64,000 bases of DNA from an uncultured Kiritimatiellota bacterium (GTDB lineage: Bacteria; Verrucomicrobiota; Kiritimatiellia; RFP12; DVOR01), in assembly GCA_944389545.1 (NCBI GenBank), contig CALXMT010000011.1, forward strand, positions 3,479-67,478, written 5' to 3'. The notes beneath the pieces were generated by a model. The model was given only the letters and a program-made list of their open reading frames with translations, was not told the DNA's origin and did no database searches. This document shows, piece by piece, positions 1 to 47,605 of this stretch; within the stretch, counting starts at the first letter, position 1, and the number at the start of each line of letters is the position of its first letter. The translations under genes were made by a program, and so were the position numbers.

Positions 1-3000
1 CCGCCGGCGGCAGACCCGACCTCATCCAGAAGACCCTCGGCGAAACCTGGGGGCGCGAACACGACAAAGCCCTCCGCGAACTCAACCGCGCCGTCCAGGG
101 CTTCGACAACTCCCTCACCGCCTGGAAGCGCCGCATCGTCGCCGCACTCTGGGACGACCGCGGCCCCGCCCTCGACCTCGTCCGCAAGGCCTACAAAGAA
201 CGCCTCGCCGAAATCCAGGAGGTCCGCCGCAAAGGCGGCGCCTCCGACCTCACCCTCAAACTCCAGGAGCGCCGCCTCCGCGCCCTCCTCGACAAGACCC
301 GCCTCAGCCACGTCCTCTACCGCCGCAAAGGCCCCAACAACGCACGCCTCTACCTCGCCGACGTCAAGGGCGAATTCCTCGAACGCCTCACCGACATCGA
401 CCCCAACCCCGACATCGCACGCTTCCAGGTCGAGCAATACGCGCACTGCCACCGCGTCATCGAGCTCGGCGGACGCGCCACCGCATACGGCCTCGACCCC
501 GTCCAGGCCCGCAACCAGCTCGCGCAGATGGTGAAGGACCTCGGCGTCGACAAGTTCCGGATGGTCGTCCGCGCCTGGAACATCTTCCGCGCACTCTACG
601 AGCGCGACGTCATCGAGCGCCCCGCCACCACCGAGCTCCTCGGCAAAGACTTCGTCGAGCTCATGCGCAAAAACACCCACTACGTCACCACCAAGCACAC
701 CGTCACCCCCGAACGCCTCCAGGCCCTCCTTGACGGCCTCGAACACGGCAAGGGCGGCGCACTCGAGCTCGCCGCCGAGCAGCTCATCAAGCGCTCCGGC
801 GAAGACACCGACGTCGGCGCCTTCCTCAAGGAATACAAAGGCTCCCTCGACCCCACCAAGAACCCCCTCCTCGAAACCATCAAGACCGCCGTCTCCATCA
901 TCACCCTCGCCGAACGCAACCAAACCGTCCTCGACTGGGTCCGCGCACTCCGCGCCCTCCGCTCCGACGAAGTCCAGGAACGCCCCTACGCACAGCGCGT
1001 CCGAAACGACCGCGTCGGATACGTCGAGTTCTACGAAAACGGCGAACGCAAAGTCCTCATCGTCCCCCGCTCCGTCGCCGCAGGATTCGAGCGCGTCGAC
1101 TCCACCTGGCTCACCGCCATCACCCACACCACCCGCGTCATCAACGCAGCCCTCACCACCAACAACTACGGCTTCATCCCCTTCGCGCAGATGCGCGACC
1201 TCTCCTCCGCCGTCTACAACACCCCCGGCCTCCACCGCTGGACCGCGCACTGGCTCTTCCCCGCCCTCGGCGACCTCGCAGCCCTCGGCGCACAGTTCGT
1301 CCCCCCCGCCGCCCTCCGCGCCCTCGCCGAACACCCCCTCGGCAAGCTCCTCATCAACAAAAACACCATCGAATACTGGTCCTCCTACGGCAACCGCGCC
1401 GCACGCCTCATCCACTCCGGCGACTTCCAGGGCGAACTCGAACGCGCCCGACAAGACCGCCTCGCCGGAAACGAAGCCTCCGCCCGCGACCGCGAATTCA
1501 TCGTCCAAATGGCCCGACAGGCCCTCCGCGACGGCATCCTCCTCTCCATGGTCCAGCTCCGCAAACAAGACTACAACGAATCCGAATGGCGGACCCTCTT
1601 CGCCAGATACAACCTCGACTTCGACGACATCCCCGCCAACGAATCCCTCCTCCTCAAAGGCGCCAAGCTCCCCGCACGCGCCATCGCCGCATACTGGAAC
1701 GGCGCCGGCGCACTCTCCGAGCTCGCCTCCGCCACCGTCAAGCTCGCCGCATACTGCTACCTCCACCAAGACGCCCTCCGCCCCGGCGCCATCGCCCTGG
1801 ACAACCGCCCCGCACCCTCCCTCTCCTCCCACGCCGCCTCCCGCATCGCCGACGGCGCCGCCCCCGCCTCCCCCTCCTTCGACACCCTCCAGCAGATCGC
1901 CAACGCATTCCGCGCAGCCGTCCTCGCCGGCGACCCCACCTTCGACATCCGCGGATACCTCATGACCTACTTCGAATGGATCTCCGGACCCTTCCTCAAC
2001 GCACGCCTCAAAGGCACCTTCCGAATCTTCCAATCCATCGCCGACGACGCCCCCAGGTCCCGCCGCCTCGACGGCAAACGCCCCTCCTCCACCAAGCTCG
2101 GCCACACCGCCGAATACGCCGCCAAACTCTCCGCCAAGGCCGCCGCGCGCACCCTCTTCTGGCTCGTCGCCTCCGGCGCCGCATCCACATCCGTCCTCGC
2201 ACTCTACCGATACCTCACCGGAAACCAAAACGCCACCCCCGAAGACATGGACGGCACCCCCCTCGGCGCACTCCACGGCACCCTCGACTGGATCGGACGG
2301 GGCCTCCGGAACATCTCCCCCTACTTCCTCCAAAACTACAACGTCTGCCCCCTCGCCACCTTCGGCGACGTCACCCTCTTCCTCGCCGCACCCGTCGCCG
2401 ACGAAGAGAAACTCTTCCTCCGCCTCTTCGACGCACTCCTCAACGCCTCCGGCGCCGACTGGACCCCAAACCCCGCCACCGGACCCGCCGACGTCGCCGC
2501 CGAACTCTTCGCCACCGTCGCCAACTCCCCCGAATCACAAGGCACCCTCGCCGGCCTCGCCATGCCCCTCGCACCCTGGATCTTCCAATCCAACCCCTAC
2601 GACCCCTTCCGACACACCAACCTCCTCACCGACGAAGAATTCGCCGCACGATGGACCAACCCCGCCGCCATCAAAACCGCCGGCGGAAGACTCATCGACT
2701 CCACCCCCCTCGCACTCATCCTCAAAGCGCCCAAACCCCTCACCCCCGAACGCCAAGCCTCCCTCAACCAATCCGGCTGGCTCGGAGACTTCCACGACAC
2801 CATCACCCGCACCCCCATCATCTCCAACGTCGCCGGCCGATTCCTCCGCGTCTCCGTCGGCGGCGAAACCGACCGCAGACGCAAACGCCAACAGCTCGAC
2901 CAACAACAAGTCCTCGCCGTCAGACTCCTCGCCAAACAAAACGCCGCCAAATACGCCCGCGGCGAACAGCCCGACGAACCCGACATCGACCCCGTCTACG

Positions 3001-3158
3001 CCCCAGACTACATCAAAGCCTACATCGACGCCCTCCAAGACCAGCCCTCCCCCGCCACCCTCCCCCGCCAACACATCCAAGAAATCCGCTCCACCCTCAA
3101 CATCCGAGACCCCCGCCTCCGCCAACAAAACCTCCGCTCCCTCCAATCCACCCCCTGA
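1..3158 (+). CDS. large hypothetical protein (>1050 aa, 5' end outside window); unknown function
   Basis: Continuous reading frame from position 3 to the stop at 3156-3158; the ORF track reports 528..3158 only because that is the first ATG. Codon use is extremely C-ending (Leu almost always CTC, Arg CGC, Asp GAC). No motif recognised. The Ser/Pro-rich and Arg/Pro-rich alternative-frame ORFs are shadows. Confidence 0.6.
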   Translation, partial: AGGRPDLIQKTLGETWGREHDKALRELNRAVQGFDNSLTAWKRRIVAALWDDRGPALDLVRKAYKERLAEIQEVRRKGGASDLTLKLQERRLRALLDKTRLSHVLYRRKGPNNARLYLADVKGEFLERLTDIDPNPDIARFQVEQYAHCHRVIELGGRATAYGLDPVQARNQLAQMVKDLGVDKFRMVVRAWNIFRALYERDVIERPATTELLGKDFVELMRKNTHYVTTKHTVTPERLQALLDGLEHGKGGALELAAEQLIKRSGEDTDVGAFLKEYKGSLDPTKNPLLETIKTAVSIITLAERNQTVLDWVRALRALRSDEVQERPYAQRVRNDRVGYVEFYENGERKVLIVPRSVAAGFERVDSTWLTAITHTTRVINAALTTNNYGFIPFAQMRDLSSAVYNTPGLHRWTAHWLFPALGDLAALGAQFVPPAALRALAEHPLGKLLINKNTIEYWSSYGNRAARLIHSGDFQGELERARQDRLAGNEASARDREFIVQMARQALRDGILLSMVQLRKQDYNESEWRTLFARYNLDFDDIPANESLLLKGAKLPARAIAAYWNGAGALSELASATVKLAAYCYLHQDALRPGAIALDNRPAPSLSSHAASRIADGAAPASPSFDTLQQIANAFRAAVLAGDPTFDIRGYLMTYFEWISGPFLNARLKGTFRIFQSIADDAPRSRRLDGKRPSSTKLGHTAEYAAKLSAKAAARTLFWLVASGAASTSVLALYRYLTGNQNATPEDMDGTPLGALHGTLDWIGRGLRNISPYFLQNYNVCPLATFGDVTLFLAAPVADEEKLFLRLFDALLNASGADWTPNPATGPADVAAELFATVANSPESQGTLAGLAMPLAPWIFQSNPYDPFRHTNLLTDEEFAARWTNPAAIKTAGGRLIDSTPLALILKAPKPLTPERQASLNQSGWLGDFHDTITRTPIISNVAGRFLRVSVGGETDRRRKRQQLDQQQVLAVRLLAKQNAAKYARGEQPDEPDIDPVYAPDYIKAYIDALQDQPSPATLPRQHIQEIRSTLNIRDPRLRQQNLRSLQSTP

Positions 3159-14522: not shown

Positions 14523-14726
14523 TTTACTACCAATGCAACGCAGGTCTGGCCAGGAAGATTGGCAATGAAGAAGCCGACCTTCTTCCAAGCCTAATCGCGA
14601 CATTCACGTCATTACCTCGTGCAATTACTTTTCGATTTGGCGGTCTTTGTGATCCCATTTTTCCGGGCGGTATTGGCAAAACAGAGGATGGCGCATTTTT
14701 GGTATCCTATAGAAAAAGGAGTAACC

Positions 14727-15674
14727 ATGAAGAGACGTTTCTTGACGCTGTCTTTGGCCTTGTTGGCATACGCCGGGCTCCATGCTGAGCCAACCTTTTA
14801 TGACGGTGTGGCGGCTTATGTGAACGACAAAGTCATCACGGTGGACACGGTGATGCAGGAGTTGCACAATGGATTTGACCTTTCGTCGGTGCCGCCGGCG
14901 GAACAGGCCGCACGCGTCCGGGAACTCTTTCCCGTGGTGCGCGACATGCTGGTGAACCGGACGTTGATTCTGGAGGCCTACGAGGCATCCGGAGCGGAAC
15001 TGCCGAATGAAGTGGTGAACGAGCGCGTGCAGGCCATTATCGCCGACCAATTCGGTGGCGATGAAGCGAAACTCAAAGAGGCGCTCCGCAACTCCCGCAC
15101 GACCCGCGAGGAGTGGATGAAGAAGGTGCGCGAGAACATCATTGTGATGGCCATGCAACAACTGCAGGTAGACCGCAAGATTGTCGTCTCGCCGAAGAAA
15201 ATCAAGGAGTATTATGCGGCGCACGCGGCGGACTTCGCGGAAGGCGCCGGGACACACGTGCACTCCATCACCATTGACCCTGCGGGTGGCGCGGCCGCTG
15301 CGGAGAAGGCCCTCGCTGAGCTTAAGTCTGGCAAGACCTTCGCGGATGTGGCGAAGGCTTACTCCTCCGACCCCCAAGCGGCTCAAGGCGGTGATTGGGG
15401 CTTTGTGGATCCGGCGACGAGCTTCGCCGCACCCATCGTGGAGGCCCTTGCCAAACTGAAACCCGGCGAGACCTCGGGCATCATTGAGATGGGTGAATGG
15501 CGCGCCATCGTGCAAAAGGTGGCGGAGCGCGCGGGCGACCCGCCGAGCTTGGCAGAAGCCTGGCCGAAGGTCGAAGCCGCGGTGCGCGCCGAATTGGGCC
15601 AAGCTCGCTACAACGAGTGGGTCGACAGCCTGCGCAAGAACGCCTACATCAAGAACGTGGACGTGAAGCTATAA
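14727..15674 (+). CDS. SurA-like periplasmic chaperone / parvulin-type peptidyl-prolyl isomerase
   Basis: Signal peptide MKRRFLTLSLALLAYAGLHA, a SurA N-domain-like region and a PpiC motif (GGDWGFVD). Start at the ATG preceded by AAAGGAG; the longer track ORF 14619 has no RBS. Confidence 0.65.
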   Translation: MKRRFLTLSLALLAYAGLHAEPTFYDGVAAYVNDKVITVDTVMQELHNGFDLSSVPPAEQAARVRELFPVVRDMLVNRTLILEAYEASGAELPNEVVNERVQAIIADQFGGDEAKLKEALRNSRTTREEWMKKVRENIIVMAMQQLQVDRKIVVSPKKIKEYYAAHAADFAEGAGTHVHSITIDPAGGAAAAEKALAELKSGKTFADVAKAYSSDPQAAQGGDWGFVDPATSFAAPIVEALAKLKPGETSGIIEMGEWRAIVQKVAERAGDPPSLAEAWPKVEAAVRAELGQARYNEWVDSLRKNAYIKNVDVKL

Positions 15675-16519
15675 TGAATCGAACCTCGCCCAGCGACGTA
15701 CGGGCCTGGTGCCAAGCCCGCGGATTCCACCCCAACAAGACCTTGGGGCAAAACTTCCTCATCGACCGCAACATCCTGGAAGCCATCGTGGCCGAGACAG
15801 GCGCAGGCGAGGGAAGCCGCGTGCTGGAGGTGGGCCCCGGTCTGGGCGTGCTGACGGAAGGTCTGTTGCAGCGCGGAGCGCGTGTGACCGCAGTGGAGAA
15901 GGACCCCGCCCTGGCGGCCTGGCTCCGCGAAAGTCTCTGCAAAGAATTCCCGGATACGCTGGAATTGCGAGAAGGGGATGCCTTGGAGGCGGACTGGAGT
16001 ACGTTGTTGGCGCAAGGGTTTGATGCGTTTGCCTCCAATCTCCCCTACTCCGTGGGCACGCGCATCTTGATGGATCTGTTGGGGTACGCCAATGCGCCGA
16101 CGCGGTTGGTGATGTTGGTGCAACGCGAGGTGGCTGACCGGTTGGCCGCGCCGCCCGGTTCGCCAGACCGCGGAACGGCCTCCGTCTGGGCGCAGTTGGA
16201 TTATGACGTGCGCGTGGCGCGCTTGGTGAAGCCCGCGTGCTTCTGGCCACCGCCGGAGGTGACGAGCGCCGTGGTGACAATGACGCGCCATGGACGCTCC
16301 ACCTTGGACGCGCCCGGGAAGACCTTCCTGCGCGCATTGGTCAAGCAAGTCTTCACGCAACGGCGCAAACAACTGGGAACCGTGCTCCGCAAGGCACCTG
16401 AGCCGTTCCGCAATCTGAATCCGGAGGCCGCCGGCATCGACCCCACGCGCCGCGCCGAAACCCTCTCTTTGGCCGAATGGGAAGCCCTTGCCGCCCAACG
16501 AAAGGAGCCCACACCATGA
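15674..16519 (+). CDS. rsmA: 16S rRNA (adenine1518/1519-N6)-dimethyltransferase
   Basis: GQNFLID...VLEVGPGLG...FASNLPY motifs. The start overlaps the surA-like stop (TAATG). Confidence 0.85.
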   Translation: MNRTSPSDVRAWCQARGFHPNKTLGQNFLIDRNILEAIVAETGAGEGSRVLEVGPGLGVLTEGLLQRGARVTAVEKDPALAAWLRESLCKEFPDTLELREGDALEADWSTLLAQGFDAFASNLPYSVGTRILMDLLGYANAPTRLVMLVQREVADRLAAPPGSPDRGTASVWAQLDYDVRVARLVKPACFWPPPEVTSAVVTMTRHGRSTLDAPGKTFLRALVKQVFTQRRKQLGTVLRKAPEPFRNLNPEAAGIDPTRRAETLSLAEWEALAAQRKEPTP

Positions 16520-17289
16520 TTCAAGACGTCCCAGACCCAATTACGCTCTTCCCGGATGCCTCCCCCACCCCGGGCGATTGTGTGCTGTCGCTGAATCGCG
16601 AAGAAAAAGTGGCTCTGGCTCCTTGGACGCAGGTCTCGACGGCCACGATTCCCTTGGTGCGCGTGGGGGAACGAACCTTTTTCCTCGGCGCGACGCCGGG
16701 TGTGGAGTTGGGGACATCCCAGCAGTTGCGGGCCTTGCCTGAGCCGGGGCTCCGCTTCGGTGCCTTTTGTGCGTTGCACTTGGCCAAGTGGTTACTGACG
16801 CATCGCCATTGCGGACGTTGCGCGGCACCTTTGGCGCGGGCAAAGGGGTGTCTGAAGTGTCCGGAATGTGGTCTGGAGACCTATCCCACCATCGCCCCGG
16901 CCGTCATTCTTGGGCTGACGTACCGAGGTCGTCTGCTCGTGACGCGGTATGCCGACAGGCCCTATAAAGGCCCGGCGCTGGTCGCCGGATACTGCGAGGT
17001 GGGCGAGACGGCGGAGGAGACTTGCCGCCGCGAGGCCTTGGAGGAGACCAATCTGAAGGTAACCGATGTGCGCTACTTCGCCTCGCAGCCCTGGGGACTC
17101 AGCGGGTCGCTCTTGTTGGGATTCTTCGGCGAAGTGGAAGACCCGACCGCGTTGAAGTTGGCGGACGGGGAACTCTCCGTGGCCGAATGGCTCGCGCCTG
17201 CCGAATTGCCTCCCCCGCCTGATGCCGTTGGAGTCCTTTCCCTCACCGCGGCAATGATTGAAGCCTTCGCGAAAGGAGCCGTGCGATGA
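16516..17289 (+). CDS. NUDIX hydrolase with zinc ribbon (NudC-like NAD(H) pyrophosphatase)
   Basis: CGRC...CPECG zinc ribbon followed by a NUDIX box (GYCEVGETAEETCRREALEETNL). AAAGGAG precedes the ATG. Confidence 0.65.
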   Translation: MIQDVPDPITLFPDASPTPGDCVLSLNREEKVALAPWTQVSTATIPLVRVGERTFFLGATPGVELGTSQQLRALPEPGLRFGAFCALHLAKWLLTHRHCGRCAAPLARAKGCLKCPECGLETYPTIAPAVILGLTYRGRLLVTRYADRPYKGPALVAGYCEVGETAEETCRREALEETNLKVTDVRYFASQPWGLSGSLLLGFFGEVEDPTALKLADGELSVAEWLAPAELPPPPDAVGVLSLTAAMIEAFAKGAVR

Positions 17290-18647
17290 AAGCTGAATCC
17301 CTGGCCCATTGGAGTGGCGGAGTCTGGTCCGTCTTGCCTACATTCCCACTCACTCGCGTGACACAGGATAGCCGCGCGGCCTGCTTGGGTGCGCTTTACG
17401 TGGCGCTCAAGGGCCCGAACCACGATGGACACGACTTCGTGGCGGCGGCCTTTCGCGCGGGAGCCACAGCCGCGATGGTGCGAGCCGATTGGACACCTTC
17501 CCCGGAGGTCGCCTCCCTGCCGCTCTTGCGCGTGGCCGATCCCGCTGCGGCGCTCCTGGCTATCGCAAAGGGATACCGCGCTGAACTCAAACCCTTCGTC
17601 TGTGGCATCACGGGCAGCGCCGGCAAGACCACGTTGAAGGAACTCGCCGCGGCCATGCTCTCCGGAACCGGCCCCACCGCCGCCACGCCGGGGAACTACA
17701 ACAATGAGGTCGGCTTGCCACTCTCCGTCCTCGCCGTACCGGAAGACGCACGTTTCGCCGTCATCGAGGCCGGCATCAGCCATCCCGGCGACATGGACCC
17801 GTTGGCCGACATCCTCCGACCCAATGCCGCAGCCATCTCCTCCATCGGCCCGGCGCACATCGAGTTCTTCGGCACAGTCGAAGCTATCGCCGCCGAGAAG
17901 GCCAAACTTTTGACCGCGGTGCGTCCGAAAGGATTCGTGGTATTGCCGCTTGGTGTGCCCGGAGAATCCATCCTGCGTGCGGCATGCCGTTGCCGCGTGG
18001 TGACGACGGCGCTCGGCGATCCCGCGGCAGACTATGTGGGTGAGCCGCTCGCCAAAGGCGTTGTGCGTGTACGCCACGGCGATGAGCCGGCGGTTCTCTT
18101 GGAGACCGGGCTCTGCGGAGAGCACAATGCTTCGAACGCCTTGGTGGCCTACGCACTCGCCCGAGAAGCCGGAGCCACGGCCGAACAGGCATTGGCAGGA
18201 CTGGCTTCGTTCAAGGCGCCGCCCATGCGCTGGGAATCCGTCCAAGTCGGCCCCATCCATGTGATCAATGATGCTTACAACGCTAACCCGCTCTCCATGC
18301 GCGCCGCGCTCGAGACCTTCGCGGGGATGGAGGCGCCCGCAGGCAAGGTCGTCTGTGTCGGCGATATGTTGGAATTGGGCGATGCCTCGGACGCGCAGCA
18401 CCGAGCGGTCGGCGAGGCCTCCGGAAATGGCCCTTGGCGTCTGCTCGCGGGTGTCGGGCCCGCCTCCCGCGCATTGCTTGAAGGCGCGATCAAGGCAGGT
18501 TATCCTGCCACACAGACCGTCTGGTTCGCCACGGTCGCGGAGGCCGCCGAAGCCTTGCCGCTCCTGTTGCGTCCTGAGGAAACGCTTCTCCTCAAGGGCT
18601 CCCGTGGCATGCGGTTGGAAACGTTGGTTGACGCCTTGCGTCGCTGA
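17286..18647 (+). CDS. murF: UDP-MurNAc-tripeptide--D-Ala-D-Ala ligase
   Basis: GITGSAGKTT P-loop plus NYNNEVGLPLSVL; Mur ligase length and architecture. Confidence 0.85.
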   Translation: MKAESLAHWSGGVWSVLPTFPLTRVTQDSRAACLGALYVALKGPNHDGHDFVAAAFRAGATAAMVRADWTPSPEVASLPLLRVADPAAALLAIAKGYRAELKPFVCGITGSAGKTTLKELAAAMLSGTGPTAATPGNYNNEVGLPLSVLAVPEDARFAVIEAGISHPGDMDPLADILRPNAAAISSIGPAHIEFFGTVEAIAAEKAKLLTAVRPKGFVVLPLGVPGESILRAACRCRVVTTALGDPAADYVGEPLAKGVVRVRHGDEPAVLLETGLCGEHNASNALVAYALAREAGATAEQALAGLASFKAPPMRWESVQVGPIHVINDAYNANPLSMRAALETFAGMEAPAGKVVCVGDMLELGDASDAQHRAVGEASGNGPWRLLAGVGPASRALLEGAIKAGYPATQTVWFATVAEAAEALPLLLRPEETLLLKGSRGMRLETLVDALRR

Positions 18648-18652
18648 GTGTC

Positions 18653-19912
18653 GTGTCCCAAGCCAAACAGTTCTGGTTTAGCCTCCTGCTCGTCTTCGGC
18701 GCGCAGCGTTTGGCGGATTTATTGAACGCGTACACGGGGCTCTGGGTCATCCCTTCCAAGTTGCCGCAAGAAACGTTGGGCGCAGTGATGCCGCTCATGT
18801 CCTTTGGCGCCTTTCTGGCACTGCCGGTGACAATCTTCGCCACGGTCTTCACGCGACAACTCTGCACCTACGCCACGCTTGGCGACGGCCCCAAGGCGCG
18901 CGGACTCTTGTGTGACGCGTTCTCCGCAACGGTGCTCACCTTTCTGGCGGCGTTGCTCATCGCGACAGTCTGCCTGCCGTGGGTGTGCGATGCGTTGCGC
19001 ATTGAGGCGCGCTTGGCTGGCTATTGTGCCGTGGTTTGCGGATTGCTTGCGGCCATCACACCTATTTTCACGGCGGCTTTGCAAGCGCTTCGTCGATTCA
19101 AGGCTATCGCACTCTCTGGCTTGCTTGCCGCACCGACGCGTCTGCTCGTCATGCTGATCGCCTTGCCCACGCTAGGGCTTGTCGGCTACTTTCTGGGGCA
19201 GATGGCCCTGCTTGCCGTGACCATCGCGGTCGCCTGCCTAGCCTTGCGGTCACTCCTTTTCGGCAAAGGCGGCGATAACGCTTGGCGTGAAGATGCGCGC
19301 CGTATGGCGTGGTATGCCGCCAAGGTCACGCTCGCCTCCGTGATTGCCTTCCTCCCTGCGTTTCTCTCCTCTCTCCTCATCCGTACGCGATTGCCGGACC
19401 TTGACTCCGGGGCCTTTTACCTCATCAGCCGTTTCTCCGAAATTGCCACCTATTGCGGCGTGACCGTCACGCTGGTCCTCTTTCCCTTTGCCGCCGGGGC
19501 ACAAGCCAAAGGCGAATCCTCCTCGCCGCTCCGCAACGGTTCCATGCTCGCCATCTTGCTGGGCGGCCTCTTGCTTGCAACGGGCTTTTGGTTCGCCCTA
19601 CCTTGGTTGTTCACCCATATCCCGGGTTACACCGACTATGTGCCTTACGCCCGCCTTGCGGCTTATTTGACCTTCATCACGACCTGCAACCTCGCCGCCG
19701 CCACGCACTACACGCATGCCCAAGCCCGGGACGATTTTCGTTATCTCCGTTATTTCATTCCCCTCTCGCTGGCCACCATGGTCGCGCTCTGGCTTCTCGT
19801 TGATGGCACGCTCCTGCGTGTTCTTCACCTCCTTTTCGTATGTGCGCTCGCCCAGCTTGTCTGCGTTGGCGCCGACCTCATCCTCACCAAAACAAGGACC
19901 CGTCATGACTAA
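18653..19912 (+). CDS. polytopic membrane protein (about 12 TM; possibly an oligosaccharide/lipid flippase-like MOP-family protein)
   Basis: Repeated hydrophobic helices throughout with no soluble domain. The family assignment is inferential only. Confidence 0.35.
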   Translation: MSQAKQFWFSLLLVFGAQRLADLLNAYTGLWVIPSKLPQETLGAVMPLMSFGAFLALPVTIFATVFTRQLCTYATLGDGPKARGLLCDAFSATVLTFLAALLIATVCLPWVCDALRIEARLAGYCAVVCGLLAAITPIFTAALQALRRFKAIALSGLLAAPTRLLVMLIALPTLGLVGYFLGQMALLAVTIAVACLALRSLLFGKGGDNAWREDARRMAWYAAKVTLASVIAFLPAFLSSLLIRTRLPDLDSGAFYLISRFSEIATYCGVTVTLVLFPFAAGAQAKGESSSPLRNGSMLAILLGGLLLATGFWFALPWLFTHIPGYTDYVPYARLAAYLTFITTCNLAAATHYTHAQARDDFRYLRYFIPLSLATMVALWLLVDGTLLRVLHLLFVCALAQLVCVGADLILTKTRTRHD

Positions 19913-26181: not shown

Positions 26182-26405
26182 TCTATCACATCCCCCCACC
26201 CTGCGCGACTTCCCTGCAGTCTCCGCGCAGTTGCTCATAATAAACACCACCGGAAGGCAGAGAAAAGAGACCTTCAGGAAAGGCCATTGTTCAAAAGAAT
26301 CGACACTGTACAACAACCTTAATCTGTCACGCCACGCATTTCTGCCACAAACGAAATGTACGACTCGCTTGATGTAAATTATGCTTCAGTTGTCAAAGAT
26401 CAATC

Positions 26406-29400
26406 GTGGAAGTGATAAACGATTCACGCACCTTTGCTAAAGACCTGGCCTCTACCTTCCTTACATCAATGGTAACCTTATTGCTGATAGAAAGATGCGC
26501 CATTTCGCAGACCTGTCATCTCACAAACTATACGCATTCACCTAAGCACTGTCCCCAGTCAATCACATTTTCCCCAATACGACTTGAATCACCACTTCCA
26601 CATGGGGCGGACGGCGTGTTCATCCACGACCGCTTGGGTCGGCGGAAGGACGCTACGGGGGCGATTGTGGATCTCATCCGTGTGGCGTCCTCGTCGGGCA
26701 TGGGGAGCACGCACCTGATCGGCCATGAGCTGGGGCACAACCTGATGTCCATCGCGCGGGACGCCGGGGTCATCACCGAGGCGCAACAGAAGGAGCTCGA
26801 CGCGCTGTTCACGGACAAGAACGGAAAGTTCGACGAGGAGGCCTTCGCGGAGGCCTTCGCGCGGGAGCTCAAGCGGGCGTTCTTTGAGACGGTGCAGAAG
26901 CGCATGGAGGACGTGCCGGCCACGAAGGCGGGACGTGCGCTCCGCAGGGTGGCGGATTTCGTCGTGACGCTGGCGCGGAGCTTCGCCTTCTGGCGGCAGG
27001 AGCGTGGGCTTGACCCGGTGACGGGCCAGCCGCTTCAGGCTGGGCAGGTGCTGGACGCGTTCCTCAAGCGGGAGCGCACGGCGGAGGATGAGGCTACGCA
27101 GGTGGCCAACGCGGCCCGCGCGGCGGAGGCCCGGGCGACGCAGGAGGCGATGGCGAAAGCCCCCACGCAGACCGTGGTGGACGAGGACGGTACGGAGGTC
27201 GCCTACCATGAGGCGGAGCGTGGCGACAAATCGAACAAGAAAGCGTCGGAGTTGAACAGCGTTCCCAAGCATGACGGCATTGGCGAGGACGTGCTTGACG
27301 CGCTGGATGTGATGTTGCGCACGGAAGGCGACACGACAATCTACACGCGTGAGTTCGGAGATGTCTTGCTTCCGTTTGGGCGGTTCCTCAATCAAGTGCC
27401 GGGCTTGAAGGGCAAGGGGTTCTTACACATCCTTGAGGAGCGGACGGGCAAGGACAATCTTTCCGTCCCGGCGGCCGTCGAGGTTTTCTTGAGGTCTGTC
27501 GAAGCGGCGGTTCGAGGGAAAGAAATCAGGGCATTGAACCAAGAAAACCGCTATGCGATCGACCTGGATGGTTACAGGGCGATTATCGCAGACAATGGCG
27601 ACTCCCGCGAATTCATCACGGGCTATAAGATTTTCACAGAAGCAGAGAAAAAGAAGAGGGAGCAGGAAAAGAAAGAGAAGGAAGAGGAACGTTCGGATGT
27701 TGAGACGGATGCCATACGCCAGTCCGCTAACTACGATCCTGCTCGCCATGGCCGCTTGAGACAGGAGGGAGCCGAACGTTTGAGAGAAAGGATAGCACAA
27801 CTTCTGGCTGGAAGGCAAGTACCAAAGAGCGTTGAAGAGCTCGCGCAGGAGCTCGAAGACTTGGATATCGCGCATTACAGACTACTCAACGCACAGAAGA
27901 AGGCGGAAGAAAACGGCGCTTCTCAAGAAGAGCTCGATGCCTTGCAGAAGGACATCGATGAAAACCGGGCGAAGTCTAAGCAGGTCGCAAAGGCGAAGAA
28001 GAAGCTCAATCAACAGCGTGCGAAGGAGCGCAAGCTCTACGGTGATCCGAACGAGGAGCGGCGTGACCACATCAAGGTGTGGAGCGGGGCGCCGCAGGAG
28101 TTCGCGGTGCCGAGCTTGGCTTACGTGGGCTCGGGCACGGGCGGGAACAATGAGGGGCGTGGGCTCTATTCGAGCGGCGTGCGGGGCGTGGCGCAGGATA
28201 AGTATGCGCGGGGTGCGTTGCGTTGGTGGGAGCCGTATGTTCAGACCGGAAGAATCATTTTCGACGGGAAGGTATTTGACAACGCCAGAAGGTTTTTTAA
28301 TTCACTTGGGGATTCGTTGGCTGGTACTTTTTACACTGGCGATGGGCTGAAAAGAACGGCTGATGGGAACTATCTTGCAGATGGTGTCGCTTATTCGGAG
28401 GACGTTGTCCTTCTTTATGCGATTGCAAGAGGACTCAGCTACAGTGCTTTTAGAAGTGAAGAATTTTATGAGTTTATATTGTTCCAAGGCAGAAGCGCGA
28501 CCAACCTTAAGGATGATCGTATACATAAGAAGACGCTCGAATATGCAAATGATATTTATGACACGCTCGATGATTATAAGAATCCTGAAGATCGGGAAAT
28601 GGCGAAGTTCTTTGCCGATCTTGTCAAAACCAAACTTGCCAAGAAAAAGGATTGGATTGCGTTTTGGGATTCTATTCTGAAGAAGGCCGAGCCGGAACTG
28701 GTGAGAACCGAAGATCCGCCGCCTGCGGTGATGGAGCAGACGTGGTTCACGAACCGCCCGGAAGGGGATGTGAGCCATTTGCTGAATTGGTTTGAGGCGG
28801 TGACGCCGGAGCAGATGGGGTGGATTTTGGATGGGGCGCGGAAGGCGGGGTTCTCGGAGGAGGAGATCGCGTTCCTTCAGCGTGAGCGGATTGACGACGA
28901 TGATGTGCTGATTGAGGACGGCAACCGGATGCCGAGCGGTCGTGAGATGTATATGCGGCTTGAGGCGATCGCGATGATGCGCGACGGTCGTTATGGCGAG
29001 ATGTCGTTTGATGCCATCACGACGGAGGAGCTTTGGAAGGCGCACGCGAATGTGATGGGGGACATCGGGAGGTTCGCTTCGGAGTTCTTTGTGTCGGCGG
29101 ACATCGATGGGATGATGTATCCAGTTGATTATCGGCACGGGAACCGGGACGGGCGGGTGTCGGGGTGGAACTACGTGGCGTTCTCGGATGAGCATCTTCG
29201 GGTGGATCATGTGTATGAGTACAACCCGGAGACGGATGACTTTGAGCTGAAGTGGCATGAGAGTGAGGGGGGTGCGTCGCTTCGGTTCACGGAGACGCCG
29301 CTGGGGCAGGAGTTGGTGGCGGAGGCGTTTGACGCGATTGTGGGGTCGCGGGTGGATTTGCTGTTGCGTCCTTCGCGTTATTACGGGAACCCTTATGAGA

Positions 29401-30908
29401 CGCGGGATCTGAATCCGCGCAACGCGTTGGTGACGGAGCACTTGCACCGTGACGTGGACGTGTCGGAGCCGAGTGGTTTTGCGGCGGAGGTGTCGGCGGA
29501 GATTTCGCGGTTTGGTACGCGTGAGGGGGATCCGACGTTGCGTGAGATTCGGGCGCGGTGTGGGAGCAAGGCGCGGTTTTATGAGGTGCTGGGGGCGGTG
29601 TATGAGACGGCGGAGGCTGTTCGGAGCGGGCTTGCGGATGTGGTGACGGGGCGTAAGCGTGCGATGATGGAGAACGCTGGGCTTCAGGCGGCGGACTTCA
29701 TCAAGCACAATGCGACGGCGCGTGCGACGGCGTTGGGGCGGAAGCTCTACCTGATGGGGCGTGAGTTTGCGTGGAAGCTGTATCAGGAGGACATCGCGGC
29801 GGCGCGTGCGGAGGTGGAGCGTCAGCGTAGGAAGGCGAGTGAGGCGCGTGGGGAGGCGCGTGCGGCGAAGGCGCAGACGCGGAACGCCGAGCGGCGCGAG
29901 GAGACGGCGCGGAATCAGGCGTACCAGAATCGGTGGGGGCTTGCGGAAGAGCGTTTCATGCGCGAGTACGAGCGGGCCTTGTTGCGCCATCAGGCGGCGC
30001 GGAAGGTGTCCGACGTGCGCGAGAAGATGCAGGAGCAGGTGGACCTCTTGCGGTTGCGGGAGGCGAAGAAGCGTGCGTTGGAGCGCGAGCGCGGGGTGAC
30101 GTTCACGGCGTTGAAGGCGACGCTTGGGGTGGACATCCCTGCGCGGTTGCGTGCGTTGGCCGGGACGCAGGAAGACCCATTCGAGGCGGCGGCGAAGCTG
30201 ATTGCGGAGATTGACGACGGGTTCGACAAGTGGGTGAAGCGCGACCGGCGGGATCTGTTGGACGGGACGGAGCCCTATACGTATCTGAACGAGCAGGGCG
30301 AGCGGGCGTACGCCGAGACGATGGGGAACGTGCTGAAGGCCGTGGCGCGGGATTTGTCTTACGGGACACTGCGCGAGGCCTTGCTGAACGCGGCGGACAA
30401 GATTGCGCGTGCGAAGCCCGAGGCGTTGCGCGTGATCGTGGAAGGGAAGCTGGGGCGCGTGGCGCGTGTGTTGCGGTTGGCGCAGAACGCGGACATCGTG
30501 ACGTTGGCGCGGCGGCGGATCAAGAGCGCGTTGGCCGAGGCGAACAAGCGGCTGTCGAGCGCGAACTCCGGCATGCGGACGCGGTACATGACGGCCATGC
30601 GCAAGCAAGCTAAGGAGCTCATCAAGACCATGCAACTGGCGGTGAGCGCACAGGACAACACGAAGGCCTCGGAGAAGAAGCGTTATGCGATGTTGGCCGA
30701 GCGTGCGCGGCTGGCCGAGGAGCTGAAGGTGATTGAGAGCGGGAAGACGCCTGACGACTTGGCGAAGGACGAGACGCTGACCGACCGCCAACATCAGGAC
30801 GCGGTGAAGCTGATGTTCTTGGAGAAGTTTGGGGATCTGAGCTATACGATCGACCCGGCGGAAGTGTGGGCGAAGGCGGCGGAGGCCGAGGGCTTTGTTG
30901 TATCTTGA
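26406..30908 (+). CDS. giant hypothetical protein (~1430-1500 aa): N-terminal HExxH zincin-like motif (HLIGHELGHNLM), then long Glu/Lys/Arg/Ala-rich coiled-coil regions; possible toxin/effector-like or phage-derived cargo
   Basis: Single uninterrupted ORF. The coding strand is strongly depleted in C at codon position 3, with interspersed AT-richer blocks. Low-GC DNA flanks both sides (26317-26600, 30909-31250). The true start is uncertain: GTG at 26406, or near 26592 where the composition switches. Confidence 0.6.
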   Translation: MEVINDSRTFAKDLASTFLTSMVTLLLIERCAISQTCHLTNYTHSPKHCPQSITFSPIRLESPLPHGADGVFIHDRLGRRKDATGAIVDLIRVASSSGMGSTHLIGHELGHNLMSIARDAGVITEAQQKELDALFTDKNGKFDEEAFAEAFARELKRAFFETVQKRMEDVPATKAGRALRRVADFVVTLARSFAFWRQERGLDPVTGQPLQAGQVLDAFLKRERTAEDEATQVANAARAAEARATQEAMAKAPTQTVVDEDGTEVAYHEAERGDKSNKKASELNSVPKHDGIGEDVLDALDVMLRTEGDTTIYTREFGDVLLPFGRFLNQVPGLKGKGFLHILEERTGKDNLSVPAAVEVFLRSVEAAVRGKEIRALNQENRYAIDLDGYRAIIADNGDSREFITGYKIFTEAEKKKREQEKKEKEEERSDVETDAIRQSANYDPARHGRLRQEGAERLRERIAQLLAGRQVPKSVEELAQELEDLDIAHYRLLNAQKKAEENGASQEELDALQKDIDENRAKSKQVAKAKKKLNQQRAKERKLYGDPNEERRDHIKVWSGAPQEFAVPSLAYVGSGTGGNNEGRGLYSSGVRGVAQDKYARGALRWWEPYVQTGRIIFDGKVFDNARRFFNSLGDSLAGTFYTGDGLKRTADGNYLADGVAYSEDVVLLYAIARGLSYSAFRSEEFYEFILFQGRSATNLKDDRIHKKTLEYANDIYDTLDDYKNPEDREMAKFFADLVKTKLAKKKDWIAFWDSILKKAEPELVRTEDPPPAVMEQTWFTNRPEGDVSHLLNWFEAVTPEQMGWILDGARKAGFSEEEIAFLQRERIDDDDVLIEDGNRMPSGREMYMRLEAIAMMRDGRYGEMSFDAITTEELWKAHANVMGDIGRFASEFFVSADIDGMMYPVDYRHGNRDGRVSGWNYVAFSDEHLRVDHVYEYNPETDDFELKWHESEGGASLRFTETPLGQELVAEAFDAIVGSRVDLLLRPSRYYGNPYETRDLNPRNALVTEHLHRDVDVSEPSGFAAEVSAEISRFGTREGDPTLREIRARCGSKARFYEVLGAVYETAEAVRSGLADVVTGRKRAMMENAGLQAADFIKHNATARATALGRKLYLMGREFAWKLYQEDIAAARAEVERQRRKASEARGEARAAKAQTRNAERREETARNQAYQNRWGLAEERFMREYERALLRHQAARKVSDVREKMQEQVDLLRLREAKKRALERERGVTFTALKATLGVDIPARLRALAGTQEDPFEAAAKLIAEIDDGFDKWVKRDRRDLLDGTEPYTYLNEQGERAYAETMGNVLKAVARDLSYGTLREALLNAADKIARAKPEALRVIVEGKLGRVARVLRLAQNADIVTLARRRIKSALAEANKRLSSANSGMRTRYMTAMRKQAKELIKTMQLAVSAQDNTKASEKKRYAMLAERARLAEELKVIESGKTPDDLAKDETLTDRQHQDAVKLMFLEKFGDLSYTIDPAEVWAKAAEAEGFVVS

Positions 30909-31236
30909 TACAAAACGTGCCGCCTGTTTTCGTTCATCGAGGCCTCAATAATAGAAACCGTAAACGCAGGCGGCACAAAAATAATGGACGCCGCTCAGCG
31001 ATTTGGCGGCGTTGAGTATGGAGGCACACCCACATCGCGGGACTTCCTCTAACCCTGACACCGATAGCATTGCACAATCTGGAGGGGATGTCAAACTTCT
31101 AGTCCCGGAAAGTTCTAGTGATCCTAGTCCTCCTAGAGGTCCGACCGCGTCGTGCTCTGCACTTTTCCTAAGAATACGCTATAAAAACAAGAGATAGTAC
31201 TTGCGATGCGCCTGCAATAAAGACGAATGGATAAGG

Positions 31237-31378
31237 GGTCGAGAAGGCCCCATAAAGGGGCTTTGGCGAGACCCTATAGGGGTCCGTGGTCAACCACTAT
31301 AGGGGTCGGGGTCGAGGCCCTATAGTGCTCCGAGGTGAGACCCTATAGTGGTCGGAGGCCAACCCTATAGGGTCTGAA
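31237..31378. repeat. array P1: ~6 tandem 23-bp repeats built on the palindrome CCCTATAGGGG (units …GAGACCCTATAGGGGTCCG…/…AACCACTATAGGGGTCGG…)
   Basis: Direct reading: period 23, a conserved CC(C/A)TATAG(G/T)GGTC core, no spacers. A homologous array lies at 47465-47605. Confidence 0.75.
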
Positions 31379-31387
31379 AAGAGGGGG

Positions 31388-32323
31388 TCAAAGGTAGGGA
31401 GAAAAGTCAGGGGGGAAGGGGGCCTGGAGGTCGAGGGGGAGGCCGGAAATGGGGTGGTTGAGGAGGAGGCGCCGAGCATGGAGGAGTTGGCGCGCAGGGG
31501 GATTGGGAAGGCGGTGGTCGAGCGCAGGTTTTCCATAGAGCGTGTCGCCAACAATGGGCGTGCCCAAGGAGGCGAGGTGGACACGGATTTGGTGAGTACG
31601 CCCGGTCTCGATGTCGCATTCCACGCGGGAAAGTCCATTCGGAAGGGTGGCAAGGACTTTCCAATGGGTGATGGCGCGTTTTCCGCCGGAGCGCAACACG
31701 GCCATCTTCTGGCGATTGGCGGGGCTGCGACCAATCTGCGTGTCGAGTGTGCCGGAAGGCGGCGGGGTGCCGTGGACGATGGCGACGTAGGTCTTGCGGA
31801 GGTCGTGGACGGCAAAGGCCTGGGCAAGCGCTTGATAAGCCCGATCATTCTTGGCAACGACCATGACACCGGAGGTGTCCATATCCAACCGATGGACGAT
31901 GCCGGGGCGCTTCTCGCCACCAATGCCACGAAGGTCGGGGCAATGCCAAAGGAGAGCATTGACCAAGGTGCCATGACTGTGGCCGCAGGCGGGGTGGACG
32001 ACCAGTCCGGCAGGTTTGTCGAGGGCCAAAAGGTCGTCGTCTTCGTAGAGAATAGAGAGGGGAATGTCTTCTGGGACAAGGTCAGTGGGTTCTGCAGGCG
32101 GAAGGGTGAGAATAAAGGTGGCACCGGGGATTGGCGCGGAGGAAAGCTTGGGCGCGGGGCGGCCCTCAAGGTCGGTGAGAAGGCCTTGTTTTGCAAGGGC
32201 CTGAATACGGGTGCGCGTGAGCTCGGGCAAGCGATGGGCAAGCCATTGGTCAAGCCGCCGCTCGGAGACACCCCCTTCGACAGTGAGGGTGAAGGATTCC
32301 AGTTCCTCGGGCGCCTCAGTCAT
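31388..32323 (-). CDS. RluA-family pseudouridine synthase (RluD/RluC-like, with S4 domain)
   Basis: HRLDMDTSGVMVVAKN catalytic motif, …GRTHQIRVHLA…, an N-terminal S4-like region. Start at MTEAP. Confidence 0.8.
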   Translation of the reverse strand: MTEAPEELESFTLTVEGGVSERRLDQWLAHRLPELTRTRIQALAKQGLLTDLEGRPAPKLSSAPIPGATFILTLPPAEPTDLVPEDIPLSILYEDDDLLALDKPAGLVVHPACGHSHGTLVNALLWHCPDLRGIGGEKRPGIVHRLDMDTSGVMVVAKNDRAYQALAQAFAVHDLRKTYVAIVHGTPPPSGTLDTQIGRSPANRQKMAVLRSGGKRAITHWKVLATLPNGLSRVECDIETGRTHQIRVHLASLGTPIVGDTLYGKPALDHRLPNPPARQLLHARRLLLNHPISGLPLDLQAPFPPDFSPYL

Positions 32324-46740: not shown

Positions 46741-46810
46741 AGCGTGACTCCTTTATCTTTATTATAGCACTTTCCCCCACCCCAGGCACCACCCATCAGC
46801 AAAGTCACAG

Positions 46811-47139
46811 TAGTGTCCGGGGAAAATTGGAACCGCAAAGACGCAAGGGTGGGCGCGAACCGCTTCGGGCTCCATCGGTCGCTCTGCGGCTTCGCCGCTG
46901 ACCGCGACCGCCGCCCTCCGTTTCGCGCCTTGTGGTCTTTTCTAAAGAAGAAGGGTCGGGATGTGGGGCGGAGCCCCACCAAGAACTCCAATCAGCTAAG
47001 CTTCCAACTCCCTTTGAGCGCCCCTTCAGGGGCGCGATAGCGTGGAAATCCCAAGGGCGGCGCGACCAACGGGAGCGATGGAGCCCGCAGGGTTTCCACG
47101 CAAGACCGTCTTCGCGGTAAAACTTCCCCGGACACTATT
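46811..47139 (+). mobile_element. MITE-like repeat family A copy 3
   Basis: Full-length copy with both TIRs (TAGTGTCCGGGGAAAA…TTCCCCGGACACTATTG). Confidence 0.75.
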
Positions 47140-47152
47140 GAGTAGCGTCCAA

Positions 47153-47421
47153 TACTGTCCGGGGAAAATGGAGACCGCAAAGACGCAAATCTTGCAGGAA
47201 AGGTGGGGCGCTAACGCCGGGCGCACGGTCGTGCGCCCTCCCGCCCCCCACTTTCCTGCGCCCAAATGACTTATTAAGACAGCTCAAGCGCGAAGACGAT
47301 GGGCGGAAGGGAGCGATCAGCGGGCGTTTAACCCGTAAAGCGACCGGCGTTAGCCCATCTGGCTTCGCGCTTACTTGCGTCTTTGCGGGAAAAGAAGGCT
47401 TCCGAATTCTCCGGACACTAT
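47153..47421 (+). mobile_element. MITE-like repeat family B copy 2 (full length, ~270 bp)
   Basis: TIRs are TACTGTCCGGGGAAAATGGAGACCGCAAAGACGCAA… and …TTCCGAATTCTCCGGACACTATT. The first ~35 bp is shared with family A; the internal sequence is different and also palindromic. Confidence 0.75.
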
Positions 47422-47464
47422 TACCTCTGTCTATCTCTGTTCCCGCCTTTCCCAGGACACTACG

Positions 47465-47605
47465 ATCCGAGACCCTATAGGGGTCCGCGGTCAACCACTA
47501 TAGGGGTCGGGGTCGAGACCCTATAAGGGTCCGAGGCGAGACCCTATAAGGGTCGGAGGCGAGACCCTATAGTGGTCGGAGGCGAAACCCTTAAGGGCCC
47601 AGAAA
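47465..47605. repeat. array P2: ~6 tandem 23-bp CCCTATAGGGG-palindrome repeats (homologous to P1)
   Basis: The first ~70 bp are near-identical to P1 (GAGACCCTATAGGGGTCCG(C/T)GGTCAACCACTATAGGGGTCGGGGTCGAG…). Confidence 0.75.

Follow-up and report, generated by a model that had tools for sequence, protein, structure and literature searches.

The giant gene of the window (the whole stretch of 64,000 nucleotides that was analysed) is a captured fragment of a giant polyvalent ejection/internal-virion protein of temperate T7-like podoviruses. Its product contains an N-terminal domain remnant (module N), an uncharacterised module A, a helical linker, a predicted ART-PolyVal-like domain that is split by an insert, a conserved core (module E), and a tail (module F) (Table 1). 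The reading that we favor, at a probability of about 0.55, is that this host-captured fragment evolves fast, is fixed in the chromosome, and swaps modules, with phage-host conflict as its likeliest role. The chromosome is that of a gut bacterium of the PVC group (Kiritimatiellota/Lentisphaerota, 'Ca. Spyradenecus'-like). Gene capture of this sort, from phage to host, is already known, and the locus is not a newly arrived toxin island.

Table 1. Features of the giant-gene locus (positions are those of the window; residues are numbered as in the 1500-aa ORF)
Feature	Position	Residues	Strand	Description
Giant gene, likely extent	26616..30908		+	GTG start, 1430 aa; host-resident polyvalent protein
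Upstream intergenic region and leader	26182..26615		.	Divergent, between aminotransferase gene (-) and giant gene (+); GC ~0.45
Module N	26601..27050	66-215	+	Zincin-like domain remnant; HELGH at 26724-26738, then invariant FDEEAF helix
Module A	27303..27635	300-410	+	GFLHILEER...ITGYKIF; uncharacterised domain
Helical linker	27636..28043	411-546	+	E/K/R/A-rich
Module B	28044..28271	547-622	+	N-terminal half of predicted ART-PolyVal-like domain (VWSGA... GRGLYSS)
Module C	28272..28724	623-773	+	Helical insert within the ART-like domain
Module D	28725..29246	774-947	+	C-terminal half of predicted ART-PolyVal-like domain (EQTWFTNRPEGDVSHLL ... ADIDG ... GWNYVAFSDEHLRVDH)
Module E	29247..29912	948-1169	+	Conserved core common to nearly all alleles and phage P0040
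Module F	29913..30908	1170-1500	+	Helical tail, P0040-homologous, near-neutral evolution
Downstream intergenic region	30909..31387		.	Convergent, giant gene versus rluA-type gene 31388..32323 (-)

The ORF of 1500 codons at 26406..30908 (+) is present as an earlier note on this DNA had described it, and its codon-position GC is coding-like (GC1 0.62, GC2 0.42, GC3 0.74). By arithmetic, the chance of an equally long open frame in random sequence of 62% GC is about 4e-20. The gene had been called by far the longest; among the complete ORFs of the window it does rank first, though not by far: another complete ORF has 1186 aa, and a cut ORF at 3..3158 has at least 1051 aa. Codons 1 to ~65-70 (26406-26600) are a non-coding leader with a GC3 of 0.43, and the jump in GC after this leader coincides exactly with the onset of homology to a phage protein, P0040. 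The start codon is uncertain and may lie anywhere within 26406-26700; the GTG at 26616 is the start of the database twin, P0001. Both the HExxH-containing segment GSTHLIGHELGHNLM and the LLPFGRFL segment that the earlier note had picked out are found in the translation. The coiled coil of more than 800 aa that the note had predicted is contradicted by an AF2 model of residues 541-950, which is confidently alpha/beta (pLDDT 78.6). Stretches rich in E, K, R, and A are confined to about residues 151-250, 401-550, and 1101-1250, with a moderate enrichment in the tail.

Searches of the window protein against Pfam, PHROGs, NCBIfam, and PADLOC yield no match, nor do PDB sequence and profile searches with whole-protein and N-domain profiles. 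An Rfam scan of 26000-31500 finds nothing. At the giant gene, a promoter/terminator scan gives signals that are not above those of shuffled sequences, with no clear promoter or RBS.

The suggestion that the product is a phage "polyvalent" protein is borne out by the domains of its sibling alleles, by homologues within podovirus modules, and by the ART-PolyVal-like central fold. P0040 is 31-39% identical to the window protein in modules N and E-F, with residues 885-1042 of P0040 aligning to module N. Its gene comes after portal, major head, and internal-virion genes on a phage contig that also has an integrase. A second giant protein, P0073, is encoded in a prophage after nozzle and T7_gp14 genes and contains modules B+D and A. 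P0040 and P0073 hold a gp16-like position in podovirus structural modules, and the B+D domain is also found in 18 IMG/VR contigs. The window protein has no counterpart of the N-terminal 880 residues of P0040. Similar lone copies occur elsewhere: P0041, on another chromosome, has a start that nearly coincides with that of the window gene when mapped on the phage protein; P0068 adjoins housekeeping genes on the single side that was recovered; and P0059 has housekeeping genes downstream, its upstream side being the contig end. We read these three as independent captures. A tblastn search against GenBank phages and PLSDB plasmids and an IMG/VR scan with the single window protein return no relatives; therefore, the phage link rests on the distant homologues and on common domains.

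Modules B and D (residues 547-622 and 774-947) are predicted to fold together as an ART-PolyVal-like domain. More than 100 giant proteins have the two segments together, as one unit. When the AF2 model is compared with BFVD by fold, the hits are phage proteins of the polyvalent or ART-PolyVal-like type (E 2e-8 to 1e-5). Alignment of B+D with canonical ART-PolyVal by hhalign gives a probability of 79% (E 1.5e-5) and pairs the family's YTGS with the YHGT of ART-PolyVal, the catalytic His being Thr in the B+D family. In the window allele (VWSGA), Ser560 occupies the catalytic-His position. Because the canonical His is missing, it is doubtful that the domain carries out classical NAD+-dependent ADP-ribosylation. 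The invariant Tyr588 (GLYSS) lies inside the hhalign-aligned segment, and none of the invariant polar residues of B+D has been lost; Asp901, in an invariant IDG motif, resembles GYDG by pattern only and lies beyond the aligned stretch. The PF18760 (ART-PolyVal) profile does not match the window protein, and B+D and canonical ART-PolyVal are present at different places in 48 proteins. The ART-like domain that B+D represents is widespread: it is found in hundreds of giant proteins of 1000-6100 aa, and neither Pfam nor NCBIfam has a model for it. Module A recurs in P0073 and in other giant proteins (jackhmmer), and the AF2 model is poor across it. By eye it has a likeness to MuF_C (a His in a helix, a terminal TG[YF] motif); its identification as a PBECR/MuF_C-like RNase was ruled out at an hhalign probability of 0.2% versus MuF_C.

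A zincin module had also been proposed for the N terminus. The HExxH motif is indeed present (HELGH at residues 107-111) and is kept in P0040 and P0041 as HELAH. Module N is modeled by AF2 with a pLDDT of 77-89, and the motif is placed in a helix (model residues 42-54). An invariant FDEEAF, which lies 33 residues past HELGH and is conserved among these three proteins, might provide a third zinc ligand, as judged from the alignment rather than from structural superposition. Allele P0014 has a sub-threshold Pfam match to anthrax-LF (ATLF; E 0.007), and MPTase, the commonest domain of polyvalent proteins, has been proposed to autoprocess such proteins (PMC5512222). These observations favor an active zincin metallopeptidase that functions in autoprocessing or as an effector, but we consider such an activity quite improbable. 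Only ~40 coding residues precede the motif in the window protein, and nothing there corresponds to the N-terminal helix and first strand (EIRFV in P0040) of the domain in the phage; a complete zincin core, with an N-terminal helix and a three-stranded sheet before the HExxH helix, is not present. Since the homology starts inside the zincin-like domain, the gene is 5'-truncated. No zincin profile matches the window protein in Pfam at E<=1 or in a PDB profile search. Furthermore, P0069 carries HRLAH, and a whole allele clade (L003/L006/L007) lacks the motif through deletion of the segment, though the genes remain open. The essential part of the protein probably lies outside the HExxH remnant, and for annotation the motif provides no ground for calling the protein a peptidase.

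At the population level, the giant gene is found between the aminotransferase gene and the rluA-truA operon in each of the strains or MAGs examined (8/8); the loci that share this position are L001-L007, L065, and L066. Occupancy of this one site persists at a background dS of as much as about 0.5-0.7 among the compared strains, which argues against the single-gene cargo of recent acquisition that the earlier note had envisaged. The proteins of the flanking genes are 96-100% identical, whereas the giant gene is mosaic, with identities of 50-80%. The nucleotide homology of the flanks continues into the gene, with breaks near 27228, 28230, 28720, and 29251. Open ORFs of 988-1750 aa are present at every locus examined, and other alleles at this same locus contain the Pfam domains ART-PolyVal, LPD1, LPD3, and MuF_C. 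Variability is centred in the middle of the protein, and the C-terminus is conserved. Module C, which has a foreign-looking composition (GC 0.44, GC3 0.43), is a segment exchanged between the window allele and strain L002. The N-terminal region decays in the L003/L006/L007 clade, with a stop codon in L007, and many alleles (L006, L007, and the P0017-P0036 group) have lost module F by deletion or frameshift. The database entries P0069 and P0071 are fragments or frameshifted.

Selection differs along the gene. The dN/dS is 0.23-0.28 for linker-A, 0.35-0.52 for module D, 0.6 for module E, and 0.74 for module F, and the 95% confidence intervals all lie below 1 except that of module B in one comparison. 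In close comparisons the ends of the gene have values of 0.1-0.2. The neighbouring genes (0.01-0.13) are far below modules E and F.

The locus also lacks the features of a genomic island or integrated element. A tRNA search of the window finds none, and no att-like direct repeats flank the giant gene. Gene calls within 10 kb include no integrase in the collinear contigs of other strains (L002-L004 and L006), and no prophage is called within ~10 kb on either side (collinear contigs, and window genes at about 21-39 kb). The overall GC3 of the gene is host-like, and module C alone is atypical in composition. The recD2/bioF-rluA junction, singled out in the earlier note for comparison among related genomes, is occupied in all eight strains or MAGs; sister species, in which synteny is rearranged, have no giant gene beside the aminotransferase. 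Because of this rearranged gene order, no clean empty site is found.

As in the earlier description, housekeeping functions border the gene: RecD2 and a class I/II aminotransferase to one side, and RluA-type/TruA/RluA-type to the other. An ORF at 31297..32271 is a shadow frame of the adjacent rluA-type gene, and an apparent spill of divergence into rluA (61-64% identity) is an artefact of this shadow ORF, the correct frame being conserved. The low-GC flanks (26200-26599, GC 0.455; 30800-31199, GC 0.52) are likewise real, and both are intergenic regions. They are 98-99% identical in the close strains L002/L004, and in L003/L006 only short conserved boxes are left; a 22-nt box at 26385-26406 is conserved even in the divergent allele clade. 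As reported, a palindromic array lies 3' of the gene and spans 31265-31378, with five CCCTATAGGG-like units at a 23-nt period in 31272-31372. It has a twin at 47473-47574 and is a dispersed repeat, not specific to the giant gene. A search of the window for silent donor cassettes for gene conversion finds none, and the only outside matches to the giant gene within the window are the palindromic array and the unrelated giant ORF at 3..3158.

Within the species, the conserved ends and linkers of the gene serve as homology arms, and whole internal modules are swapped, resulting in many architectures at one locus. The product would be a soluble cytoplasmic protein under weak purifying and diversifying selection, with phage-host conflict as its most likely role. 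Its effector-type modules might act on an invading element, or the protein might interfere with related podoviruses that have its N- and C-terminal parts in their own ejection proteins. Iyer et al. 2017 (PMC5512222) suggested a role of this type for polyvalent proteins captured by hosts; they describe such proteins and their mosaic orthologues and propose that the captured copies derive from prophage remnants and are possibly defensive. A narrower version, which we regard as decidedly unlikely, is that the gene encodes a domesticated, hypervariable decoy: the truncated copy made by the host would block virion assembly or genome ejection of infecting relatives by co-assembling or competing with their ejection proteins, or would turn their own effector modules on them, and alleles would be renewed through recombination with the targeted phages. 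If true, this would be a defence principle built from captured virion-cargo genes and absent from current catalogues (no PADLOC match).

Alternatively, the gene may be the leftover of a podovirus ejection protein in a decaying prophage, drifting without a present function and sometimes patched by phage recombination. The 5' truncation within a domain, the deleted HExxH segment and in-frame stop in the L003/L006/L007 clade, the tail deleted or frameshifted in many alleles, the elevated dN/dS of modules E and F (0.6-0.74) relative to the neighbours, and the lack of a recognisable promoter signal are all consistent with decay. This explanation is nonetheless unlikely, though far from negligible, given that the ORFs are open at every locus with a background dS that reaches about 0.6, that dN/dS is significantly below 1 in modules A, D, E, and F and is 0.1-0.2 at the ends in close comparisons, that the invariant polar residues of B+D are kept, and that new intact domain combinations are maintained. 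Another possibility is that the chromosomal protein acts in trans as a hitch-hiker, being packaged through its N- and C-terminal parts into the virions of related (pro)phages and then injected into the next cell, so that the gene would be an accessory gene of the phage located outside the prophage. Modules N and E-F are homologous to a phage ejection protein, and two independent lone copies have nearly the same starting point relative to the phage protein, a sign that everything beyond this point may form a self-contained unit. However, there is no prophage called near the locus, no close phage counterpart has been found, and the tail is often lost; we therefore consider packaging very unlikely.

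The earlier proposal of a polymorphic toxin or secreted effector, taken here as one directed against other bacteria or a host animal, is highly improbable. The protein is large and modularly variable, contains toxin-type folds (ART-like in the window allele; ART-PolyVal and MuF_C/PBECR elsewhere among the alleles), and differs between strains. However, neither a signal peptide nor a TM or other hydrophobic segment is found (maximum Kyte-Doolittle 19-mer score, 1.09), a Pfam scan detects no PAAR, RHS, LXG, T6SS, or T7SS trafficking domain, and no conserved small, immunity-like ORF is present downstream. In addition, it is the central part that varies and the C-terminus that is conserved, and the neighbours are housekeeping genes.

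Under the favored reading, that of a host-captured, module-swapping fragment, the locus is a clean natural example of a capture that was previously proposed only in general terms: a phage polyvalent/ejection gene retained at a single chromosomal site and diversified through module exchange. If the protein is anti-phage, it would represent a class of defence genes overlooked by present catalogues. In annotation, the locus should not be described as a toxin island.

Several known systems resemble parts of this gene. ART-PolyVal (PF18760; Tox-ART-HYD2 clade, with an H-Y-D active site) aligns with B+D in strand 1 and the GxGxY[ST] strand, and the Tyr is invariant in B+D, which has a conserved Asp in an xDG motif; unlike ART-PolyVal, B+D has a large helical insert and extra invariant polar residues (EQT..TNR..GD.SHLL). 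As in MPTase-PolyVal/ArdC-type zincins, the HExxH helix of this domain family comes after beta strands and is followed by a conserved acidic helix, but the window domain is N-terminally truncated, profile-less, and dispensable in some alleles. The position of P0040 and P0073 is that of podovirus ejection/internal virion proteins (T7 gp14-gp16; the cyanophage A4 pre-ejectosome, PDB 9K3A, PMC12002296), whereas the window gene is not surrounded by virion genes and no lytic transglycosylase is detected in it. Some part of the structure model matches PDB 9K3A. In Helicobacter pylori, jhp1044-type polyvalent orthologues have domains duplicated and rearranged in many combinations, which has been read as an arms race (PMC5512222). 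The window orthologues are also mosaic in domain combination; however, the jhp1044-type genes reside in (pro)phages and have PBECR and DdrB-ParB domains, while the window locus is outside a recognisable element and exchanges modules that are ART-like, LPD, or uncharacterised. Finally, like the polyvalent proteins of PMC5512222, the product is a giant multi-module protein, with ART-PolyVal, LPD1, LPD3, and MuF_C among its alleles. At least two domains of the polyvalent repertoire are found when sibling alleles and the fold are counted, but not from the Pfam domains of the window allele alone, which has no Pfam-recognised polyvalent domain and whose ART-like domain belongs to the unmodeled B+D family, where Thr/Ser replaces the catalytic His. 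The context also corresponds to one described for polyvalent proteins (iii, capture by host genomes), that of a lone copy among housekeeping genes with homologues beside virion genes. What sets the window gene apart from them is that it is fixed at a single chromosomal site within the species and is polymorphic there.

The giant ORF detected mechanically is present, and its GC by codon position is coding-like (GC1 0.62, GC2 0.42, GC3 0.74). Its codons 1 to ~65 (26406-26600) are low and flat in GC (GC3 0.43); P0001, a database protein of 1430 aa that is 100% identical to the window protein, starts at GTG 26616, and similarity to the phage homologue sets in exactly where GC jumps, with "GADGVFI". 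The low-GC left flank thus consists of the divergent intergenic region and the leader that separate the aminotransferase from the giant gene. Within it, two leader boxes are 95-100% conserved between allele clades, the remaining intergenic DNA being unalignable; the upstream box holds TTGTCA followed 17 nt on by TGATAA, a possible promoter. To the right, ORF 31297..32271 (-) was rejected as the rluA-type gene, as it is a high-GC shadow that overlaps the real frame on the same strand. Its use as a comparison frame generates a spurious 61-64% "divergence".

Features in and around the giant gene and elsewhere in the window
Feature	Position	Strand	Remark
Second giant ORF	3..3158	+	cut by left edge; at least 1051 aa; GC3 0.86
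SurA-like gene to TrmA	14595-22436		block
Housekeeping neighbours, left			TrmA-like, RecD2, aminotransferase
Aminotransferase gene	25042-26181	-	left neighbour of giant gene
Leader boxes	26385-26406, 26427-26447		
Giant ORF	26406..30908	+	1500 codons
Linker motif DPNEERxxHI	28044-28070		
Right flank	30909-31387	.	convergent intergenic region before rluA-type gene
First palindromic array	31265-31378		intergenic
rluA-type gene, true frame	31388..32323	-	
Housekeeping neighbours, right			RluA-type, TruA, RluA-type, AddA-like, Der
Stretch of ~1 kb without obvious gene	46760-47470		just upstream of second array
Second palindromic array	47468-47597		intergenic

The aminotransferase groups the window with gut MAGs labelled Kiritimatiellaeota or "Candidatus Spyradenecus". 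Every homologue with a readable contig (P0001, P0003, P0009, P0019, P0021, P0025, P0037 and the MAG locus L007) occupies the same site, in the order aminotransferase (-), giant gene (+), rluA-truA-rluA-addA-der operon (-). Neither a tRNA nor att-like repeats were found at the locus, and the collinear contigs of other strains contain no integrase within 10 kb. A recent cargo islet with a zincin module at its head, as read in the earlier note, is not supported. In sister species, whose aminotransferases are at most 92% identical, gene order is rearranged and no giant-gene homologue adjoins the aminotransferase. Compared with the RecD2-aminotransferase pair, the SurA-like-to-TrmA block has been inverted or moved in these species (L008-L010), and so the giant gene lies at a synteny breakpoint. 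Members of the divergent allele clade carry a 130-aa DUF2752 gene between the aminotransferase and the giant gene (L003 8872-9264, L006 8974-9366), which is missing from the window and its close strains.

Across strains the flanking proteins are 96-100% identical, whereas the giant proteins are 50-80% identical and collinear only in parts. Among close strains, nucleotide identity of the flanks, intergenic regions included, is 96-99%. This flank homology enters the gene from both ends and breaks near 27228, 28230, 28720 and 29251, and the sequence between these points is replaced; modules have been exchanged at a fixed locus. Replacement alleles carry Pfam ART-PolyVal, LPD1, LPD3 or MuF_C, the alleles are 976 to 1754 aa long, and insert C (residues 623-773) is foreign in composition (GC3 0.43). 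The linker motif is conserved and precedes different modules depending on the allele, either the B+D domain (described below) or segments with ART; it may mark a joint at which alleles recombine, or serve as a processing site.

In comparison with L002, a close strain, dS of the neighbouring genes is 0.01-0.14 and their dN/dS no more than 0.13. At its ends the giant gene shares the dS of the neighbours, with dN/dS of ~0.1-0.2; its middle is saturated, indicating that it has been replaced, not mutated. Against the divergent clade, where background dS is ~0.5-0.7 and bootstrap intervals for the listed dN/dS values lie below 1, dN/dS is 0.23-0.28 for the linker, module A (residues 300-410) and coiled coil, 0.35-0.52 for module D, ~0.6 for module E (residues 948-1169) and 0.74 for the tail, F (residues 1170-1500). 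An inert remnant, a rival reading, would accommodate several features that point to erosion: the HExxH segment is lost, with a stop codon in its place, in L003, L006 and L007 (L007 has an additional downstream stop); tail F is absent or frameshifted off in many alleles; and some database entries are fragments. With dN/dS below 1 yet above that of the neighbours, the gene is maintained, its reading frames included, under a constraint much weaker than theirs.

The window allele has no match in Pfam, PHROGs, NCBIfam or PADLOC, and no relatives were found in GenBank phages or PLSDB plasmids. The modules are of phage ancestry. P0040 (2533 aa), a distant homologue with 39% identity to module N (residues 66-215) and 31% to modules E-F, is encoded directly after portal, major head and internal-virion genes on a 33-kb phage contig with an integrase. 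A hitch-hiker packaged in trans is another rival reading. P0041, the second distant homologue, is the product of a lone chromosomal gene in another bacterium. It matches residues 850-1571 of P0040 at 74-84% identity, with homology that begins directly after a terminator hairpin, and represents an independent capture of nearly the same part of the phage protein. Lone polyvalent-type giant genes beside housekeeping genes also occur on other metagenomic chromosomal contigs: besides P0041 (L043 10001-12808), they include P0068 (L044 8024-15115) and P0059 (L046 122-5275), each of the latter two with one flank recovered.

The HExxH and LLPFGRFL segments reported in the earlier note are both found in the giant ORF. 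The >800 aa of coiled coil are not: the model for residues 541-950 is alpha/beta and confident, and E/K/R/A-rich stretches are limited to a few segments. An active zincin would be consistent with the conservation of HELGH and a downstream invariant FDEEAF in P0040 and P0041. However, the sole zincin hint is a sub-threshold ATLF match in one allele, and the motif is dispensable across a whole allele clade. The window gene has only ~40 residues ahead of HELGH; a further strand and helices lie upstream in the phage protein. We read the HExxH region as what is left of an MPTase-type domain and not as an established peptidase. Against a secreted toxin, a further rival reading, the locus has no secretion or immunity features.

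A profile search over 1.84 billion representatives (494 matches) shows residues 547-622 (B) and residues 774-947 (D) to be parts of a single domain. Hundreds of proteins of 1000-6100 aa contain this domain, usually with a spacer shorter than insert C, and so do 18 IMG/VR contigs; the members sampled have ART-PolyVal or LPD3 at another place in the chain. One member, P0073 (4453 aa), is encoded in a prophage, after its nozzle and T7_gp14 genes. Built on a diverse alignment, the AlphaFold model of residues 541-950 is of good quality (pLDDT 78.6), and Foldseek against viral models retrieves "large polyvalent protein associated domain" and "ART-PolyVal-like" phage proteins (E 2e-8 to 1e-5). In hhalign, the domain matches canonical ART-PolyVal (probability 79%, E 1.5e-5) with the family's YTGS opposite YHGT; thus, the catalytic His is replaced by Thr in the family and by Ser560 in the window. 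A Tyr (GLYSS) and one Asp (IDG) are invariant. Module A recurs in giant proteins, including P0073; considered as a relative of MuF_C, it proved unrelated.

The second giant ORF has no Pfam match. Over 1060 aa it shares 43% identity with the C-terminal part of P0097 (2938 aa); the C-terminal parts of further giant proteins, which also bear the B+D domain, match it at 24-27% identity. Given this homology and the folD gene that follows, the genome has another lone polyvalent-like gene ~23 kb upstream. Each palindromic array contains five CCCTATAGGG-like units with a 23-nt period (10 matches versus 0.57 expected). The first is also present in L001, L002 and L004; L003 and L006 align there only at ~75-77% identity. 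The arrays look like a dispersed repeat or an array bound by a protein, with no connection to the giant gene. The stretch preceding the second array contains a ~35-nt motif (gtccggggaaaat.gga.accgcaaagacgcaa), with direct copies at ~46815 and ~47160 and an inverted copy at ~47375.

We infer that the giant protein acts in phage-host conflict; any mechanism for its action would be speculative. The locus is of interest as a species-level hypervariable site and for an ART-like domain that lacks a Pfam or NCBIfam model. The suggestion of a polyvalent protein in the earlier note was right, given the phage ancestry of the modules and the alleles with ART-PolyVal, LPD1, LPD3 and MuF_C. Polyvalent proteins were defined by Iyer et al. 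2017 (PMC5512222), who describe mosaic orthologues, such as H. pylori jhp1044, and, as a third context, lone host-genome copies that derive from integrated elements and are possibly defensive. The giant gene fits this description and is a further member of an already described kind, the host-resident polyvalent proteins.
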